From an uncultured virus (IMG/VR IMGVR_UViG_3300034418_009100) (taxonomy: Duplodnaviria; Heunggongvirae; Uroviricota; Caudoviricetes), in the IMG/VR virus record IMGVR_UViG_3300034418_009100: 64,000 nt of DNA. One strand, given 5' to 3'. Positions 32,981-42,383 of the stretch are shown in pieces; positions within the stretch are counted from its first letter, which is position 1, and each line of letters opens with the position of its first letter. The translations under genes were made by a program, and so were the position numbers. The notes under the pieces are model-generated. The model made no database searches and was not told where the DNA came from. It saw only the letters and a program-made list of their open reading frames with translations.

Positions 32981-33721
32981 ATGGTACAAATAAAAAACTA
33001 TTTGGTAGGGTGTGTTAGGCCAGTAGTAAACTATTGGGGTTATTGGCAGGGAACAGGTCCAAACCCAAATTGGGAAAAAGACTATAAAAGTTATGCTGAC
33101 ATGTATAAAATTAGTCGCCAAAGCGCCAAAAAGTTTCTACAAAGCACTTGGAAAGAAGTAGCATTAAAATCTCCGGTGCTTGATGCACGAATGAATCAAA
33201 TTGCAACATACTATGCAATTAAAGAAATGTGGCATCAAGAACCATGCAACATATTGTTCATGGGTTCAGACACTATGTTTATTAAGCCAACTGAATTTTT
33301 TGGAAAATACCGAGAAATGCGTTTGTTTAATTATACTGATCCTAAATCACACCCAGAGCATACGCACTATCTAAATGATGATATTAGATACTATCCTGCT
33401 ACTATGGACTCTAGTGTTTGGGAACTGGGCGAACAACTTATGGCCAAATGGTTTAGTCATAAAGAAAGCGATTGGAGTTGGGGGCAACTTCTTCACAATC
33501 ATCAGATCTGGAGTCAAGGACTGACTCCTGAGCAAATGATAGATCCTACTATGGCTTTTCAGGTAGTAAGTTTAGATGAAAATCATTCAAATTCATTTAA
33601 TGGGTGTACTTTAGCAGAAGCAAAAGTCTTACATTTTCACGGCAGTAGAAATGCAGGAGAGCGTAATGCAGTAATGTTGGACATTGCAAAACAAATGGAC
33701 ATTGACGTTGATTCAGAATAA
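32981..33721 (+). CDS. putative GT-A fold glycosyltransferase
   Basis: ILFMGSDT degenerate DxD, KVLHFHGSR; first gene of the sugar cluster. Confidence 0.5.
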   Translation: MVQIKNYLVGCVRPVVNYWGYWQGTGPNPNWEKDYKSYADMYKISRQSAKKFLQSTWKEVALKSPVLDARMNQIATYYAIKEMWHQEPCNILFMGSDTMFIKPTEFFGKYREMRLFNYTDPKSHPEHTHYLNDDIRYYPATMDSSVWELGEQLMAKWFSHKESDWSWGQLLHNHQIWSQGLTPEQMIDPTMAFQVVSLDENHSNSFNGCTLAEAKVLHFHGSRNAGERNAVMLDIAKQMDIDVDSE

Positions 33722-34673
33722 AAGATTTTTAATTACAGGTGCAACGGGTTTTATTGGCAGTCATTTAGTAGAATATTTTTCTCAGCACAATAATCAAATT
33801 GTCTGCGGTGTAAGGAAAGACACAAAAAATTCGTCACGCCTGAAGCACATTGAAAATTTAGAATTTGTTGAGTATGGTCTTAAAGAACCTTGTAATCATC
33901 TAAGATCACAATTACTTAACATAGACTATATTTTGCACGTTGCCGCAAACCCTAGTTCAGAAGCCAGCCTACAAGATCCAATTGGCGCAATATTTGATAA
34001 TGTGGTGGGTACGGGATATATTTTAGAACTAGCACGAGAATTAAATCTTAAACGATTTGTATATTACAGTACAGCAGAAGTATTTGGTCCAGTCAGATTA
34101 GGCAATGACAGCAAAGAAGATGATCCTTACAACTCTAACAATCCATACGGAGCAACTAAAGCCGGAGGTGAAGAACTTGCGGTTGCTTACAGTTCAAGTT
34201 TTGGCATACCGACATCAGTAGTCCATCTCAATAACTCGTTTGGTGAAAGATGTCAAAGCACTCGTTTCCCAGTAACCACAATTAAAAAGATATTAAACAA
34301 CGAAAAACTTGTAATTCATACAGGTGCAGATGGACATATTGGTGGCCGGCGCTGGTATTATGTTAAAGATGTAGCCGAACATACTGATTTTATTTTACAA
34401 AATCAAAAAAGCCATTGTGAAAAATGGAATAGTGCTGGTGCTGAATTCATTGATAATTTATCGTTTGCTAAGATGATTGCACAAAGTTTGAAAAAAGAGT
34501 TACGTTATGATCTTGTGCCAGTAGACAGACCAGGACATGATGCTTATAATCTAGTCAATCCCGATAAACTTTATCGTGAAGGATATAAGAACACCAGTAC
34601 CACACAGGAAAAAATAGACAACATGGTAAAATGGTATTTAAATAATACTCAATGGTTGGAAAACGTTCAATGA
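33684..34673 (+). CDS. NAD-dependent epimerase/dehydratase (RmlB-like SDR)
   Basis: ITGATGFIGSH, STAEVFG, PYGATK; start codon uncertain. Confidence 0.9.
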   Translation: MQNKWTLTLIQNKRFLITGATGFIGSHLVEYFSQHNNQIVCGVRKDTKNSSRLKHIENLEFVEYGLKEPCNHLRSQLLNIDYILHVAANPSSEASLQDPIGAIFDNVVGTGYILELARELNLKRFVYYSTAEVFGPVRLGNDSKEDDPYNSNNPYGATKAGGEELAVAYSSSFGIPTSVVHLNNSFGERCQSTRFPVTTIKKILNNEKLVIHTGADGHIGGRRWYYVKDVAEHTDFILQNQKSHCEKWNSAGAEFIDNLSFAKMIAQSLKKELRYDLVPVDRPGHDAYNLVNPDKLYREGYKNTSTTQEKIDNMVKWYLNNTQWLENVQ

Positions 34674-35611
34674 GTAAGAAGATTGTGTATGTTACAGGTT
34701 GCCTGGGATTTATTGGCTACCACGTAACTCGGGCCTGTTTAGAGCAAGGGTGGTATGTTAGAGGAGTTGACAAAGGCACTTATGCAGCCAATTGGAACTT
34801 ATTACCAGAGTTACAAAAGTATAAAACTTTTACTTTTGAACATAAAGATATCAATGACATTGACAGGATCTATGACAGTGACTATTTTATTAACACTGCT
34901 GCCGAAACACACGTAGACAACAGCATTGAAAGTTCAGACGAATTTGTACACAGTAACATCGATGGTGTTCATCATTTGCTCAAATTGATCAATCAAAAGA
35001 AACTGCAAAAACCGATATTTTTGCATTTTAGCACTGACGAAGTCTACGGTGATATAGAGCAGGGCAGTCATACAGAACAAGACTTGTTACGTCCTAGCAA
35101 TCCTTACAGTGCCACCAAGGCCGCTGCCGACATGCTGGTGATGGCCTGGGGCAGAACCCATAATTTGCCTTACATAATTGTACGCCCCACCAATAACTAT
35201 GGCATAGGCCAGTATGTAGAGAAACTTATACCTAAAACTTGTAAATTTTTTACAATCGGCAAACGAGTTGATCTACACAATAATGGGACTCCTGTTCGTA
35301 CATGGTTACATGCTTCTGATACTGCTAGTGCAATTATTAAAATTATTGAATCTGGCGTAACTAATGAAATTTATAATATTTCTGGTAATTTAGAATTACA
35401 AAACATTGAAGTGGTTAAAAAAGTTTCCAAAATAATGCACAACACCGACGATGTTTCCTCTTATATAGAAGATTCGGTTAGAAAAGGGCAAGATGTTAGG
35501 TACAGTATAGATGATTCCAAACTTAAAAAACTTGGATGGCGACCACAGGCAGAGTTTGACACGGAGTTGAAAAAAATAGTAAAATACTACAAGAACAATT
35601 TTATTTGGTAA
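34670..35611 (+). CDS. rmlB: dTDP-glucose 4,6-dehydratase-like
   Basis: VTGCLGFIG, AAETHVDNSI, STDEVYG, PSNPYSATKA, NNYG..Q..EKLIP. Confidence 0.88.
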   Translation: MSKKIVYVTGCLGFIGYHVTRACLEQGWYVRGVDKGTYAANWNLLPELQKYKTFTFEHKDINDIDRIYDSDYFINTAAETHVDNSIESSDEFVHSNIDGVHHLLKLINQKKLQKPIFLHFSTDEVYGDIEQGSHTEQDLLRPSNPYSATKAAADMLVMAWGRTHNLPYIIVRPTNNYGIGQYVEKLIPKTCKFFTIGKRVDLHNNGTPVRTWLHASDTASAIIKIIESGVTNEIYNISGNLELQNIEVVKKVSKIMHNTDDVSSYIEDSVRKGQDVRYSIDDSKLKKLGWRPQAEFDTELKKIVKYYKNNFIW

Positions 35612-35612
35612 T

Positions 35613-36932
35613 ATGGAACACATTCTTAAACAGGTTCGCGAATACGTTGAACAAAAACAATCTAATAAGTCCTGGACTGCAGGTAAAGACTTTGTAAACT
35701 ATGCAGGCGCACACTATGATGCTGAAGAATACGTAGCAGGTGTAGAAAGTTTGCTTAACGGTTGGTTGGCAATGGGCACGGCAGGTATTGAGTTTGAACG
35801 ACGGTTTCCTTCACAGTTCGGCAAAACACTGGGTATTGTGACCAACAGTGGATCCAGCAGTAACTTGCTGATGATGGCTTCGCTTACCAGCAAACGTGGT
35901 TATAACTTGCCTAAAGGCACAAAAGTTTTGATGCCTATTGCAGGTTTTCCTACTACACTTAATCCTACCCTACAAGTAGGATTCTTACCTCAGTTTGTAG
36001 ACATTGAATTAGACACATTAAACATTAATTTAGACCAAGTTGAACGTGCATTAGCCAATGATCCAGAAATACGTGTAATTACTTTTGCACACGTCTTGGG
36101 TAATCCTCCTAACATGGATCAGTTAATGGATCTTGTGCGTAAACACGATTTAATTTTGTTAGAAGACTGTTGCGATGCACTGGGCAGTACGTGGAACGGT
36201 CAACCTCTTGGCAGTTTTGGTTTAATGGCATCATGCAGTTTTTATCCTGCACACCATATGACCATGGGTGAAGGTGGATTTGTTGCTACCAATGATCCAC
36301 AACAAGAAGTTATATTACGCAGTTTCCGTGAATGGGGCCGCGGTTGTTACTGTGTTGGTCCAGAGGCAAACAAACTGAAATGTGGTACTTGCGGCAAACG
36401 ATTTAGCGAATGGATTCCTGCCATGCCAGGAGAAATATTTGACCACAAGTATGTTTACGATGAGATTGGTTATAACCTAAAACCCATCGAACTACAATGT
36501 GCCATGGGCTTGAAGCAGTTGGACAAATTGCCAGAAATACATCAACTACGCCGCCGCAACTACAAATTGTTACTAGACATTTACAAAAAGCACGAAGAAT
36601 TTTTTATCTTACCTTATGCACAACCAGGCTCGGATCCATCATGGTTTGCTTTTCCCTTAACAATAAGGCAGGGCGCACCATTTAGTCGTAGTGATATAGT
36701 AGACTATTTGGAAGAAAACCTTATACAGACACGCCCGTATTTTGCAGGCAATATTATGCTACAACCTGCGTACAGCCATTTGATGGATCCGAATGTGGCC
36801 CGAAACTTAATGCCCAATGCTACACACGCCATGACTCATACTTACTTTCATGGCACCAGTCCTGTGATTACAGAACAGCAAATTCAGTACATTGGAGAAA
36901 TTGTAGACGGCTTCTTAAGTTTGTTTAAGTAA
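35613..36932 (+). CDS. rfbH: NDP-4-keto-6-deoxyglucose 3-dehydratase (E1, RfbH/DdhC)
   Basis: NSGSSSNL, EDCCDALGS, SFYPAHHMTMGEGG (His in place of Lys), WGRGCYC..TCGKRF, DHKYVY..GYNLK. Confidence 0.92.
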   Translation: MEHILKQVREYVEQKQSNKSWTAGKDFVNYAGAHYDAEEYVAGVESLLNGWLAMGTAGIEFERRFPSQFGKTLGIVTNSGSSSNLLMMASLTSKRGYNLPKGTKVLMPIAGFPTTLNPTLQVGFLPQFVDIELDTLNINLDQVERALANDPEIRVITFAHVLGNPPNMDQLMDLVRKHDLILLEDCCDALGSTWNGQPLGSFGLMASCSFYPAHHMTMGEGGFVATNDPQQEVILRSFREWGRGCYCVGPEANKLKCGTCGKRFSEWIPAMPGEIFDHKYVYDEIGYNLKPIELQCAMGLKQLDKLPEIHQLRRRNYKLLLDIYKKHEEFFILPYAQPGSDPSWFAFPLTIRQGAPFSRSDIVDYLEENLIQTRPYFAGNIMLQPAYSHLMDPNVARNLMPNATHAMTHTYFHGTSPVITEQQIQYIGEIVDGFLSLFK

Positions 36933-36952
36933 TAATATAGAAATGGTAACAG

Positions 36953-37612
36953 ATGATTAACAACGCTATTGAAGTAAGAGAATATCAAGGAAACTCTTGG
37001 TACTGGCCCAAACAAGACGGTATTGATGAAAATTCTTGTTGGGACTATCTTACAAAACGATCAGAAGTTCCTGATAGAATAAGTGAACTAGTAAGCAATA
37101 GACAAGTGGTAGTACAAGCAGGTGGTAACTGCGGGTATTATGTTAAACCATATGCAAGAAACTTTCAAACAGTTTACACTTTCGAGCCAGACCCTACTAA
37201 TTTTCTTTGTTTATGCATGAACGTTCCAGAGATTAACGTTATAAAAATGCAAGGGTGTTTAAGTAACAACCATGCACTATTAGGAATGGAAAATCATAAA
37301 CTTGGACAAGATGTTGGAGCCGGACACGTAGTTCCGGGAGGAGTTTTCCCCTCATTTAGAATTGACGATTTAGCACTAGAAGAATGCAATCTGATTCATT
37401 TAGATATTGAAGGCTTTGAGTTACAAGCATTGCGTGGTGCTGTCGACACTTTAGAAAAATTTAAGCCTGTGGTAGTTGTAGAAATTTTTGAAGACTGGGC
37501 TAATAGATACGATAGTAGTTTCATAAAATTAAAATCTTTTTTGTTCAGTTATAATTATGAACTAAAAACTCAAATTGATGGGGATTTAGTTTTTAAACAT
37601 AAACAAGGATAA
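36953..37612 (+). CDS. FkbM-family methyltransferase
   Basis: VQAGGNCG, TFEPDP, IHLDIEGFE..LRGA. Confidence 0.88.
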   Translation: MINNAIEVREYQGNSWYWPKQDGIDENSCWDYLTKRSEVPDRISELVSNRQVVVQAGGNCGYYVKPYARNFQTVYTFEPDPTNFLCLCMNVPEINVIKMQGCLSNNHALLGMENHKLGQDVGAGHVVPGGVFPSFRIDDLALEECNLIHLDIEGFELQALRGAVDTLEKFKPVVVVEIFEDWANRYDSSFIKLKSFLFSYNYELKTQIDGDLVFKHKQG

Positions 37613-37615
37613 ACA

Positions 37616-38623
37616 GTGAGAGTATGTGATTGGATCCCCCAATATCTGCGTTCACAAGGAGTAGAACGTGTTCATGGCTTAATGGGCGGCGGTGCAAGCG
37701 GACTCAATGATGGATTTATTAAAGCAGGAATGCCTTATATTTGCTACCATCATGAGCAAGGTGCTGGACATGCTGCCATTGGTGAAACAAAGTTTACTGG
37801 CAAAGTCAGTGTAGTAAATCCTACCACCGGTTGTGCTGGTACTAACTGCGCTACCAGCGTGCTTAATGCTTGGCAAGACAGTGTGCCTGTAATCTTTATC
37901 AGCGGCAACGTTAGACTTGATGCCTGTAGTGGATATATCAACGAGCAACGTGGTATACAATTACGCAAGTATGGCGTACAAGAACACCACATTGTGGACA
38001 CGTATGCTACAATGACTAAATGGAGCGTGTTTGTTACAGATGTACGAGATGTTGCTTATACACTAGAACGTGCAATGTGGTTAGCACAGGAAGGCAGACC
38101 TGGTCCTGTTTGGATTGACATCCCCAGCGATATACAGAACGCTCCAATGCCAGAAGATGTTAAACATTTCGAACCTCCTGCTAGTGCCAAACTTCCTGTA
38201 GACTTCGAGTTTGTAAAAAAATCTATAGAAATGAGCGAACGTCCGCTTATACTTGCGGGCTACGGTATTAGACAGAGCCAAACAGTTGACTTGTTCAATG
38301 AATTTATTGAACGATATGAAATACCATTTGCCAGTACGTATGGTGCAAGGGATTATACTCCTGGCAACCACCATTACAGCATGGGCACAGTAGGCATTAA
38401 AGGCAGTCGTGCAGGTAACTTTGCAGTACAAAATTGTGATTTATTGTTAATATTAGGTTGCAGTCTTGGCAGTAGTGTAGTAGGATATGATCCTAAACAG
38501 TTCAGTCCCTATAGTTACAAGATTATGATAGACATAGACAACAACGAATTGAACAAGGATATTGTGTCAATCGATGCTAGATATCTTTGTGGACTAGAAA
38601 AGTTTTTTGGAGCAATGCTATGA
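37616..38623 (+). CDS. TPP-dependent enzyme, N-terminal and central domains (acetolactate synthase/YerE-like)
   Basis: HHEQGAGHAA, TTGCAGTN, AWQDSVPV, GRPGPVWIDIPSD. Confidence 0.9.
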   Translation: MRVCDWIPQYLRSQGVERVHGLMGGGASGLNDGFIKAGMPYICYHHEQGAGHAAIGETKFTGKVSVVNPTTGCAGTNCATSVLNAWQDSVPVIFISGNVRLDACSGYINEQRGIQLRKYGVQEHHIVDTYATMTKWSVFVTDVRDVAYTLERAMWLAQEGRPGPVWIDIPSDIQNAPMPEDVKHFEPPASAKLPVDFEFVKKSIEMSERPLILAGYGIRQSQTVDLFNEFIERYEIPFASTYGARDYTPGNHHYSMGTVGIKGSRAGNFAVQNCDLLLILGCSLGSSVVGYDPKQFSPYSYKIMIDIDNNELNKDIVSIDARYLCGLEKFFGAML

Positions 38624-39369
38624 CAAGAACAGAATGGTTAGCTAAATGCCTACACTGGAAAACTAAATGGCCTGTCATGCAGCCCGAATACCGTGCTGAC
38701 AATGAAACTAACTCTTTAAACATTTATGCAGTTTTAGATTGGGTTAACAAGCATAGTGATTCAAAACAAGTACTAGTAGGTGATGCTGGTAGCATTAGTT
38801 ACGCAGGACCTACCGCACTGGAAGCAAAACCGGGACAACGTTTGGTATTCAGTCCTGCACAAGCAGACATGGGCTGGGCAGTACCTGGTGCTATTGGTGT
38901 TGAACTAAACAATGGTGCAGGTAGAGGAACAATATGCATTACCGGCGATGGCAGTTTTATGAGTAACTTACAGGAACTGGCTGTAATTAGAGAACATAAT
39001 CTCAATGTGCAGATTGTTATCCTAAACAACGGCGGCTACCTCAGTATCAAAAATACACAAAGCAAATACTATGAAGGTCGTGTATTTGGAACTAGTGCTG
39101 GAAAAGGTCTTTGGTTCCCCGACTTTGCTAAAATAGCAGACTCATTTGGTTTTGAATATTTTCAATTAAAGAGCAAGGACGACTTAGATCGGTTTGCATT
39201 TAGAATGAGTAAGACTGGCGGTCCTATTATATGGGACTGTGTTTGCCATATGGATCAAGAAATATTGCCTGCACAAGGATTAAAAGATGGACGTCAGGCA
39301 GGCCTACACGACTTGGTACCATTCCTACCAGAAGAAGAACTTAAGTCGGAATTACTTGTAGATTTGTAA
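38620..39369 (+). CDS. TPP-dependent enzyme, C-terminal TPP-binding domain
   Basis: MGWAVPGAIG, GDGSFMSNLQEL..LNNGGY; ATGA overlap and GGAG RBS. Confidence 0.9.
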   Translation: MTRTEWLAKCLHWKTKWPVMQPEYRADNETNSLNIYAVLDWVNKHSDSKQVLVGDAGSISYAGPTALEAKPGQRLVFSPAQADMGWAVPGAIGVELNNGAGRGTICITGDGSFMSNLQELAVIREHNLNVQIVILNNGGYLSIKNTQSKYYEGRVFGTSAGKGLWFPDFAKIADSFGFEYFQLKSKDDLDRFAFRMSKTGGPIIWDCVCHMDQEILPAQGLKDGRQAGLHDLVPFLPEEELKSELLVDL

Positions 39370-40062: not shown

Positions 40063-40109
40063 GTAGTACTAAGGTAGTACTTGCTCGAAATTCCCTATTT
40101 CGCTATAAT
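40063..40109 (+). promoter_or_regulatory. early promoter module, copy 1
   Basis: GTAGTACTAAGGTAGTAC-TTGCTC-17 bp-TATAAT. Confidence 0.8.
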
Positions 40110-40141
40110 TATGGCATAAGTTAACGAAACAGGAGCAGACA

Positions 40142-40411: not shown

Positions 40412-40454
40412 TACTAAGGTAGTACTTGACGATAATTCGCCATTTTGCTATAAT
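40408..40454 (+). promoter_or_regulatory. early promoter module, copy 2
   Basis: GTAATACTAAGGTAGTAC-TTGACG-17 bp-TATAAT. Confidence 0.85.
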
Positions 40455-40487
40455 TATGGCATAACGTAACAGAAGTAGGAGCTGACA

Positions 40488-41507
40488 GTGAGTACATACA
40501 TCGAGATTGTTGAAGGCACTTATCGCAACCAGAATTGTGCTGGCATGCAGTTTGAACTGGTTAAACAGTTTGAGCGTGGTGCTAAGAAAAGTTTTGTAAC
40601 AGTCAAAAATCAAGGTCAGTTTCCTGGCTGTCCTGAGAGCATTCGCATTGCCTGCGAAGGTCCAATGAGTTATCAATTTGTAGGAGATGCACCTGTGCAG
40701 AGTGAAGTAAAAGATCCTACCGTTCAAGAAACGGATGAGGAAGCAATCAGTCGCATCCGTGAGCGATTTGAAATCCTTACGGAGATGACCAAGGCGGCTA
40801 CCACTGGTAGCATTCGTGCTATGATTGTCAGCGGCCCTCCCGGCGTTGGCAAGAGTTTTGGCGTTGAGCAAGAAATTGAAAAGGCTACCTTGCTGGATCA
40901 ACTGGCTGGACGCAAGATCCGTGCTGAAGTGGTTAAAGGTAGTGCAACCGCTCTTGGCTTGTACAGTACTTTGTACAAGTATTCGGACGAGAATTGCGTG
41001 GTTGTGTTTGACGACTGTGACAGCATTTTGTTGGATGACGTCAGTCTTAACCTGCTGAAAGGCGCATTAGATTCGGGCAAGAGTCGTAAGATTTCTTGGT
41101 TAAGTGACAGCCATTTGTTGCGCCGTGAAGGCATTCCGGACAGTTTCCAGTTTAAGGGTTCGGTAATCTTTATTACCAACCTCAAGTTCGACTCAATGAA
41201 GTCGCAGAAACTTCGGGACCACTTGGACGCACTGCAAAGCCGTTGCCACTATTTGGACCTGACCTTGGACACCATGCGTGACAAGATCCTCCGTATCAAG
41301 CAGATTGCCAGCGATGGCGAACTATTCCGTGATTATGAGGAGATTGAAACTGTGGCACAGGACGAGATCCTGGCGTTTATGGACGATAACAAGAATCGTC
41401 TGCGTGAGATGTCGTTGCGTATGGCGCTGAAGATTGCTGACTTGCGTGTCAGTTTCCCCGAGCGTTGGCAAGTAATGGCTCGTACTACTTGCATGAAGCC
41501 GGCTTAA
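40488..41507 (+). CDS. AAA-type P-loop ATPase
   Basis: SGPPGVGKS Walker A, VVVFDDCD Walker B, IFITN sensor 1, ALQSR Arg finger. Confidence 0.88.
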   Translation: MSTYIEIVEGTYRNQNCAGMQFELVKQFERGAKKSFVTVKNQGQFPGCPESIRIACEGPMSYQFVGDAPVQSEVKDPTVQETDEEAISRIRERFEILTEMTKAATTGSIRAMIVSGPPGVGKSFGVEQEIEKATLLDQLAGRKIRAEVVKGSATALGLYSTLYKYSDENCVVVFDDCDSILLDDVSLNLLKGALDSGKSRKISWLSDSHLLRREGIPDSFQFKGSVIFITNLKFDSMKSQKLRDHLDALQSRCHYLDLTLDTMRDKILRIKQIASDGELFRDYEEIETVAQDEILAFMDDNKNRLREMSLRMALKIADLRVSFPERWQVMARTTCMKPA

Positions 41508-41597
41508 ATACAAGAACGGGAGACTTGGGGCTCATATCAAATATCCCCTCAGTCTTAAACAACCAACTGGTGTCCCTAAACAACTTGAGATTCAATT

Positions 41598-42278
41598 ATG
41601 GCAACTAAAACTAAATCTGAACAACACGAAGAACTTATCCAAACTCTTAAGTTCACACCCCGAACATATCGTGTAAGCCTAACTGGCTATGGTGGCGAGA
41701 TTGTTCTTGGAAGTGTGCCCCGAGAGACCTATGAGTACTTTCGTGACAATGAAATTGATGTAGAAGAATATGCTGGCGGCGGATGGGGTTGGGATGATGA
41801 CGAAGACAGTCCTGAAGTTCCAGAAGAGCATCGTTTTGTAGAACCTGGCAGTTATTATGATTGCGATGACATTGCTCATGAAGTAGGTTGCGAGTTTAGC
41901 GAATACAATTACATTACTATTTCGGATGAAAATGGTGATGAAGTTTGGAGTTGCAAACTGGATTATGAAGAATTGGAAAAGCACGGTGTTGAAGTCGAAT
42001 ACACCGAAGAGTTCATGTGCAGTGACAGGCCGGACAGAGAAAACACTGTGGGCTTTATTGGTCAGAGTGTAGAAAAAGGTACATTCTTCGATGGCGATTT
42101 AGGTTTAACTGCACCATTGGATCTAGCCAAATTAAAAATCTATGTCTACGAAGTTGAAGGTTGGGAATTAATTGCCAACGTAACTTACGGCGATGAAGAC
42201 ATTGAGGGTACAGATGGATATGATACTCGCGGTAAAAGCATGGAAATGAAATTTTACGACACTGGAGACGAGGATTAA
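41598..42278 (+). CDS. acidic hypothetical protein
   Basis: 226 aa, D/E-rich. Confidence 0.75.
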   Translation: MATKTKSEQHEELIQTLKFTPRTYRVSLTGYGGEIVLGSVPRETYEYFRDNEIDVEEYAGGGWGWDDDEDSPEVPEEHRFVEPGSYYDCDDIAHEVGCEFSEYNYITISDENGDEVWSCKLDYEELEKHGVEVEYTEEFMCSDRPDRENTVGFIGQSVEKGTFFDGDLGLTAPLDLAKLKIYVYEVEGWELIANVTYGDEDIEGTDGYDTRGKSMEMKFYDTGDED

Positions 42279-42282
42279 GTTT

Positions 42283-42356
42283 AGGGTTGCCAATATTCAG
42301 TCAGCTCCTGAGGCAACCTTTTTAGGCCCTGTCATTTTTATGGCAGGGCTTTTTTT
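42283..42356 (+). ncRNA. 3'-UTR hairpin with anti-RBS loop followed by an intrinsic terminator
   Basis: GGTTGCC/GGCAACC stem, loop contains GTCAGCTCCT; GCCCTGTCAT/ATGGCAGGGC plus T run. Confidence 0.55.
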
Positions 42357-42383
42357 GACTTCTTTACTAGGATAAATTATAAT
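42355..42383 (+). promoter_or_regulatory. sigma70 promoter
   Basis: TTGACT-17 bp-TATAAT. Confidence 0.8.

Follow-up and report, generated by a model that had tools for sequence, protein, structure and literature searches.

A terminator-proximal hairpin complementary to the ribosome-binding site of an NrdC.10-family ATPase gene in tailed phages: evidence for conserved pairing and a predicted role in autoregulation

Results

The stretch of DNA analysed here (the window) corresponds to the initial 64 kb of a 35%-complete viral record of 124.6 kb (genome G000), whose relatives reach 374 kb. The gene under study (40488..41507, + strand, GTG start at 40488) encodes a 339-aa AAA+ ATPase of the T4 NrdC.10 family (phrog_1250). 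In profile searches the protein matched phrog_1250 as well as weak AAA models, and it was found to be 35% identical to T4 NrdC.10 and 42% identical to a PA5oct protein. In the available part of its source, NrdC.10 is noted as a conserved ORF with an AAA motif and of unknown role (PMC1524935). A structure model of the ATPase has a small beta-rich N-terminal domain joined to an AAA+ module (pLDDT 80); structure searches returned generic AAA+/P-loop fold matches only, and no solved structure of a relative was found when one was sought by sequence.

Transcription of the ATPase is predicted to start from a sigma70-type promoter, TTGACG-17-TATAAT (40426..40454, + strand, 11/12 match), giving a leader of about 27 nt that is weakly structured (z = +0.7). 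As the first-pass annotation had noticed, the ATPase shares a repeated early-promoter module, which contains this promoter, with ORF40142 (40142-40411), and ORF40142 lies on the same read-through transcript as the ATPase. Copies of the module are found at 40067-40109 and 40412-40454 of the window and at eight further places in G000 (10 copies), with a TACT(A/T)A(G/A)GTAGTA-type dyad directly 5' of the -35 box that is likely a protein-binding site, albeit a putative one. We infer the "early" class of the ATPase operon from its host-type promoter. Further upstream, at 33684-39369, is a cluster of ORFs which, judging from their translations, resemble nucleotide-sugar and cell-surface genes and include two NAD-dependent epimerase/dehydratase-like ORFs, an aminotransferase-like ORF, an FkbM-like methyltransferase and a thiamine-diphosphate enzyme split into two ORFs at 38587-38623.

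Downstream of the ATPase stop codon lie a weak hairpin (41518..41554, + strand; z = -0.4) and an acidic 226-aa ORF (41598..42278, + strand), which has close homologues in this lineage only and is the last gene of the predicted operon. This ORF is followed by the hairpin of interest (42283..42320, + strand) and then, as had been claimed, by an intrinsic terminator (42324..42357, + strand) made up of a 12-pair stem (42324-42351) and a U tract, the first strong terminator past the ATPase promoter. Since a strong promoter lies upstream and no strong terminator precedes that at 42324-42351, a single transcript is predicted to span the hairpin together with both genes, the ATPase and the 226-aa ORF. 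The promoter of the next operon (ORF 42389 and a helicase; 42355..42383, + strand) overlaps the terminator U tract, and in the window (42350-42383) as in most relatives the U tract runs into the TTGAC -35 box of that promoter.

The hairpin was first proposed to carry, in its loop, an exact complement of the ATPase ribosome-binding site (RBS), and the complementarity proved exact: GTCAGCTCCT (42300-42309) is the reverse complement of AGGAGCTGAC (40477-40486), directly 5' of the GTG at 40488. The predicted helix is 11 bp long with a terminal U-G pair, and joins the anti-RBS element GTCAGCTCCTG (42300..42310, + strand) to the Shine-Dalgarno (SD) sequence and spacer of the ATPase, TAGGAGCTGAC (40476..40486, + strand), in a duplex of -20.8 kcal/mol, or a net -14.9 kcal/mol once both sites have been opened. 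The GGTTGCC/GGCAACC stem was also recovered, with 42283-42291 pairing with 42312-42320 (z = -2.9 by itself and -5.3 when the terminator is included). Presentation of the entire 10-mer in the loop held only in part, as the hairpin, which folds into an outer 9-bp stem, a 5-nt bulge and an inner 4-bp stem, has a predicted loop of just 7 nt (UCAGCUC, 42301-42307). Because the inner stem (UCAG/CUGA) holds both of its ends, the 10-mer is partly paired, at an opening cost of about 2.9 kcal/mol. In relatives the sequence of the presenting stem varies freely while its pairing is kept, and among 43 elements the stem arms were found to covary (own arms -13.3 vs swapped arms -6.7 kcal/mol).

By themselves, motif counts say little. 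Scanning the window for AGGAGCWGAC with one mismatch allowed gave 7 sites against 4.6 expected, a number reached in 17/100 shuffles and thus not unusual; the exact 10-mer would be expected 0.06 times in the window (both strands) and 5e-5 times in the 110-nt intergenic gap by a Markov estimate. The case for the predicted element is made by its conservation and covariation in relatives, described below, and not by such counts. An Rfam search gave nothing at the gathering threshold (best E in the window 0.61; 0 hits in 5 loci). Two candidate features were considered and rejected, namely an antisense ORF using the reversed SD, for which the window offers just a 41-aa TTG ORF and the relatives no matching ATG, and an internal promoter at 42196-42224, whose 9/12 match is at chance level and whose -10 box is altered in L006.

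A first set of 80 loci was reduced to 63 distinct loci by dropping duplicates and the truncated L043, and 56 of these had a predicted terminator within 5 kb. When 5 kb downstream was searched for the best contiguous helix with the ATPase start region, this helix fell in the 55-nt pre-terminator window in 37/56 loci, where window coverage would give 0.87. An unrelated motif was used to pick a second set, which contributed 39 distinct loci that were new; 19 of them had a terminator, and the best helix preceded it in 7/19, against 0.80 expected; three of these seven represent one lineage and three are weak U-rich matches. As the loci of both sets are related, such counts are not independent events, and a control on the minus strand did not discriminate (mean best -19.1 vs -18.3). 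In all, 47 distinct elements reached -14 kcal/mol or better, with helices of 7-12 bp, a negative net energy in 47/47 (median -10.5) and a mean predicted unpaired probability of 0.70, so that models predict both an accessible loop and a favourable net pairing. The element is located at the first predicted terminator in 43/47 loci. One loop word was traced to 104 distinct viral contexts, and 16 of the 17 that had a terminator were at an ATPase locus. The distance that would be bridged varies widely, from an element only 6 nt past the ATPase stop codon to one 4.4 kb away across translated genes (L036); in seven loci (L010-12, L017, L027, L074, L077) it starts 6-10 nt past the stop, and the minimal forms among them (L010-12, L017, L027) do without the protective 5' stem.

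The compensatory changes that the first-pass annotation had suggested looking for were found, as head and tail sites change jointly in relatives. Own head-tail pairs averaged -17.7 kcal/mol compared with -14.1 for swapped pairs, with 0/100,000 permutations as good; kinship inflates this permutation result, and the ATPase tree therefore carries more weight. One head/tail state on the tree is the AGGAGCT/AGCTCCT type. A 24-row clade mostly has GGAGCCAACC/GGTTGGCTCC, and nested in it are a switch to GGAGCTAA/TTAGCTCC (4 rows, support 100/100) and a further group with GGAGCAA/TTGCTCC (support 100/100). Elsewhere a group with ACGACACGGA/TCCGTGTTGT has a sister group with ATTACACGGA/TCCGTGTAGT, while L027 pairs as GTTAATCCACA/TGTGGATTAAC upstream of the SD. 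The second set adds, from a lineage of 53-55% identity, CATCCACGCAAA/TTTGCGTGGATG, whose exact pairing of 12 nt lies 5' of the SD. Within the spacer, position +5 is paired in 24/30 combinations and position +6 in 18/30, an imperfect pairing that hints at another constraint; G-C at +6 occurs in the window lineage alone and A-U in 14/30 combinations.

These data bear on the simplest alternative, in which the match is due to chance or is a neutral inverted copy that happens to lie next to a normal terminator. Short words resembling an SD are frequent, the raw motif count does not exceed shuffles and some relatives have no element; still, the position of the element, the covariation and the several unrelated sequence solutions all oppose this reading, as does the finding that the reversed SD comes without an antisense ORF start in relatives. 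At the level of sequence comparison, position and covariation in relatives contradict a chance origin of the match, and this alternative is hardly credible. It could also be proposed that the pairing promotes expression, with a closed loop protecting the 5' end or returning terminating ribosomes to the start. In L027 and L241 the helix is just upstream of the SD and leaves it free, and in the seven loci with the shortest distance a ribosome terminating on the ATPase would presumably unwind the element. In most loci, however, the helix covers the SD itself, and in most, the window included, the element follows the stop codon of another gene, which makes an expression-promoting role very unlikely.

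The pairing is not universal. No helix of -14 or better was found in 9/56 loci, and in a clade of 51-56% identity the element was missing in 12/12 usable loci. L009 is the one case in which the ATPase is followed by a terminator of its own, and here the match has decayed to -9.1; a hairpin with a GTTAGCTCT loop persists ahead of a second terminator (L009:7780-7815), does not match the L009 RBS and is possibly a relic of the element. One clade has an invariant loop, TTTGTTAGCTCCTTT, yet 8/8 readable RBSs differ in the spacer after AGGAGC. Pairing in this clade covers 7-9 bp only, and something else therefore appears to conserve its loop. In five other loci (L233, L237, L244, L249, L273) perfect AAAGGAGC-loop-GCTCCTTT hairpins were seen past the GGCAATGTCAATAAGTCC motif described below; their SD-like arm is locked with its complement, and the ATPase RBS of these loci does not match.

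In cultured NrdC.10 phages, T4 included, the best helix was not pre-terminator in 9/9, and among these nine it lay in a 3' UTR hairpin only in the Pseudomonas jumbo phage PA5oct (MK797984.1, L222:5152-5173). This hairpin lies 11-33 nt past the stop codon of the NrdC.10-like gene, and its 3' arm can pair with the gene's own RBS (-17.9 kcal/mol, with G-U pairs), a single unreplicated case. The sequence of the 5' arm is similar to that same RBS, and the hairpin abuts the SD of the next gene. It is a possible cultured test case or a chance arrangement, and no environmental relatives of the PA5oct protein were found when sought.

Like the ATPase, other early genes were initially proposed to be shut off by the same loop. 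The part of this claim that concerns the ATPase RBS, conserved and covarying, stood; its extension to a class found no support in whole genomes or in the homologues of ORF40142. In four genomes (G000, G001, G002 and G004; 35-100% complete) to which a simple ORF caller was applied, the ATPase start region ranked 1/163, 1/370, 4/401 and 5/502, respectively, against the genome's own loop, and only the ATPase family kept a score of -18 kcal/mol or better in every one of them. The other promoter-led GGAG genes (14, 13, 19 and 9) had no preference for their own genome's loop in 4/4 genomes, and the top secondary matches were not homologous between genomes. As earlier claimed, CAGGAGCAGAC (40130..40140, + strand), the RBS ahead of ORF 40142, matches with one internal mismatch, and this ORF ranks 3/163 in G000 (-17.6, mismatches allowed), followed by ORF78417 at 4/163 (-16.9). 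The ORF40142 RBS has not been kept as a target in relatives: the start regions of its homologues (33 distinct ones) have 14 different GGAG+4 motifs or none, only 7/33 distinct cases are near an ATPase, and the G002 homologue scores only -13.0. ORF40142 is a possible lineage-specific second target. A search for a second AGGAGCTAAC target in five fragments (16-25% complete) found just the element and one ATPase RBS. Because the ATPase family alone keeps a strong match and the ORF40142 homologues have generic, variable RBSs, a class-wide reading is not supported, although incidental secondary targets may exist.

A broader form of this idea is that of a general anti-SD RNA that silences early genes of the phage, or genes of the host, whose RBSs are of the AGGAGC type. 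Consistent with it, ORF40142 and ORF78417 are both module genes, two promoter-led G001 genes carry GGAGCCAG, which matches the loop of that clade, and the invariant loop is conserved beyond the clade's own RBS; the complement of that loop is common as an RBS in other viral contigs, with an ATG directly after it on the other strand in 50/104 non-terminator loci. Besides the lack of an own-loop advantage and of homologous secondary matches, this proposal must contend with the 4/7 G000 module genes with a readable RBS that pair at just -10.8 to -13.6, and with clades that pair upstream of the SD through sequences unique to the ATPase leader. We consider it improbable.

A second conserved hairpin was seen downstream of the ATPase in 64/96 distinct viral contexts, in which GGCAATGTCAATAAGTCC is closed by a freely covarying stem. 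It is located 19-32 nt past the ATPase stop codon in L015, L018, L022-24, L026, L036 and L039, and occurs also in the L231-L350 set and upstream of a small ORF in 170-kb T4-like records (L253). No Rfam match was found for it. The window counterpart, at about 41518-41554, is divergent and has the same position as in relatives, its homology being putative. The hairpin looks like a putative protein-binding or processing site.

Discussion

Both sites have changed together repeatedly in evolution, and the tail of the mRNA therefore probably pairs with its own head; pairing of the two sites as such, whatever its mode, is close to certain. We infer that the pairing is intramolecular, that repression comes from a block to 30S binding and that the purpose is to cap the dose, and we give a probability of roughly 55% to this reading, in which the 3' tail hairpin would close in cis on the ATPase RBS of its own message, prevent 30S loading and limit the amount of ATPase made per transcript. 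The short ATPase leader would be open during transcription, allowing ribosomes to load; once the terminator has been reached, the loop would capture the ATPase RBS and block further 30S binding, so that the early AAA+ ATPase would be translated mainly while its message is still being synthesised. Blocking of 30S is suggested as the mode since a helix of 7-12 bp is far shorter than the ~40-nt icaR duplex cut by RNase III. A search for RegA found no match anywhere, its controls among them, and carries no information.

The main competitor is a mechanism in trans, in which the terminator-protected 3' end would be excised, build up as a small RNA like CarZ or OppZ and repress the ATPase RBS on other copies of the mRNA, a delayed negative feedback. 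A hairpin followed by a U-tailed terminator is the usual anatomy of 3'-derived small RNAs, and the phage element has it. Action in trans would operate whatever the operon length (6 nt to 4.4 kb), and a span of 4.4 kb across translated genes, as in L036, is demanding for intramolecular pairing. In addition, the putative conserved hairpin past the ATPase stop codon in many relatives could mark processing, and CarZ has the same layout, with the 3' UTR of an operon set against the 5' UTR of its first gene, in the available part of its description (PMC7398697). Pairing in cis is nevertheless favoured, though not decisively, by the minimal forms that lack a 5' stem, by the position at the first terminator, by the decay of the match in L009, the one case where a terminator separates the two sites, and by the lack of a second conserved target. 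Phage-encoded Hfq had no match in 5/5 phage records (2 of them at least 90% complete), which may point in the same direction, and the only internal promoter from which such an RNA might arise, at 42196-42224, is the chance-level candidate altered in L006. We regard the trans mechanism as possible, at well under even odds.

If closure in cis is adopted, a more speculative extension would be a phage-wide timer, in which a self-closing mRNA keeps its RBS open until the polymerase arrives at the operon end, so that operon length (6 nt-4.4 kb, from inserted cargo genes) would set the number of ATPase molecules per transcript, several unrelated pairs would represent reinventions, and PA5oct might retain a decoy hairpin, opened by ribosomes, as a survivor. 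This proposal is tentative, and we would not bet on it in its full form.

Tail-to-head mRNA repression of the bacterial type rests on few cases, namely icaR, the type I toxin mRNAs and CarZ/OppZ. A large phage family offers many natural compensatory pairs on one target, clades that pair upstream of the SD included, and with these pairs the choice between cis and trans as well as the effect of transcript length become testable in short reporter constructs. The arrangement could also be turned into a compact, portable device for pulse expression, and it would mark the widespread, uncharacterised NrdC.10-family ATPase as a protein that needs tight dose control.

No literature description of the element was found; the hairpin may be among the 10,000 unnamed candidates of Fremin et al. 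2023 (PMC10690425), and six motif words had no match in four supplement files of that study. Likewise, in the available part of a review of phage small RNAs (PMC12197685) no such tail-to-head case was found.

Among known systems, the type I toxin mRNAs aapA and hok are, as far as the available part of the source describes them, silenced as full-length messages by pairing of their 5' and 3' ends, which sequesters the SD over a long distance (PMC6733600). They code for short toxins, are opposed by an antisense antitoxin, use co-transcriptional blocking hairpins and are activated by 3' trimming. In contrast, the phage message has a 339-aa ATPase as its product, a weakly structured leader and no antitoxin that could be seen, and a search for a strong antisense promoter at the ATPase 5' end found none. 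CarZ and OppZ of Vibrio cholerae are autoregulatory small RNAs derived from 3' UTRs; they are reported to be RNase E products that are bound by Hfq and act in trans (PMC7398697, in part). Like CarZ, which is complementary to carA, the phage element is located at the operon 3' end ahead of an intrinsic terminator and is complementary to the 5' region of the first gene; for the phage element, processing, Hfq binding and a discrete RNA are putative.

The closest parallel is the icaR mRNA of Staphylococcus aureus, in which an anti-SD motif in the 3' UTR blocks initiation by base-pairing with the SD region of its own mRNA; the available part of that report leaves open whether the pairing is in cis or in trans (PMC3868564). 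In both systems a 3' UTR motif is complementary to the SD region on the same transcript, a predicted one in the phage, where no strong terminator lies between the two and the pairing has been maintained in evolution, imperfectly so in one clade. The differences are those of scale and evidence. As described there, icaR is a single bacterial gene with a long 3' UTR and a ~40-nt duplex cleaved by RNase III, whereas the phage element belongs to an operon, with up to several genes, of a phage of lytic type, forms a 7-12 bp helix from a hairpin loop and is supported by covariation. The phage element, which belongs to no Rfam family, is predicted to work like icaR and has the layout of CarZ.
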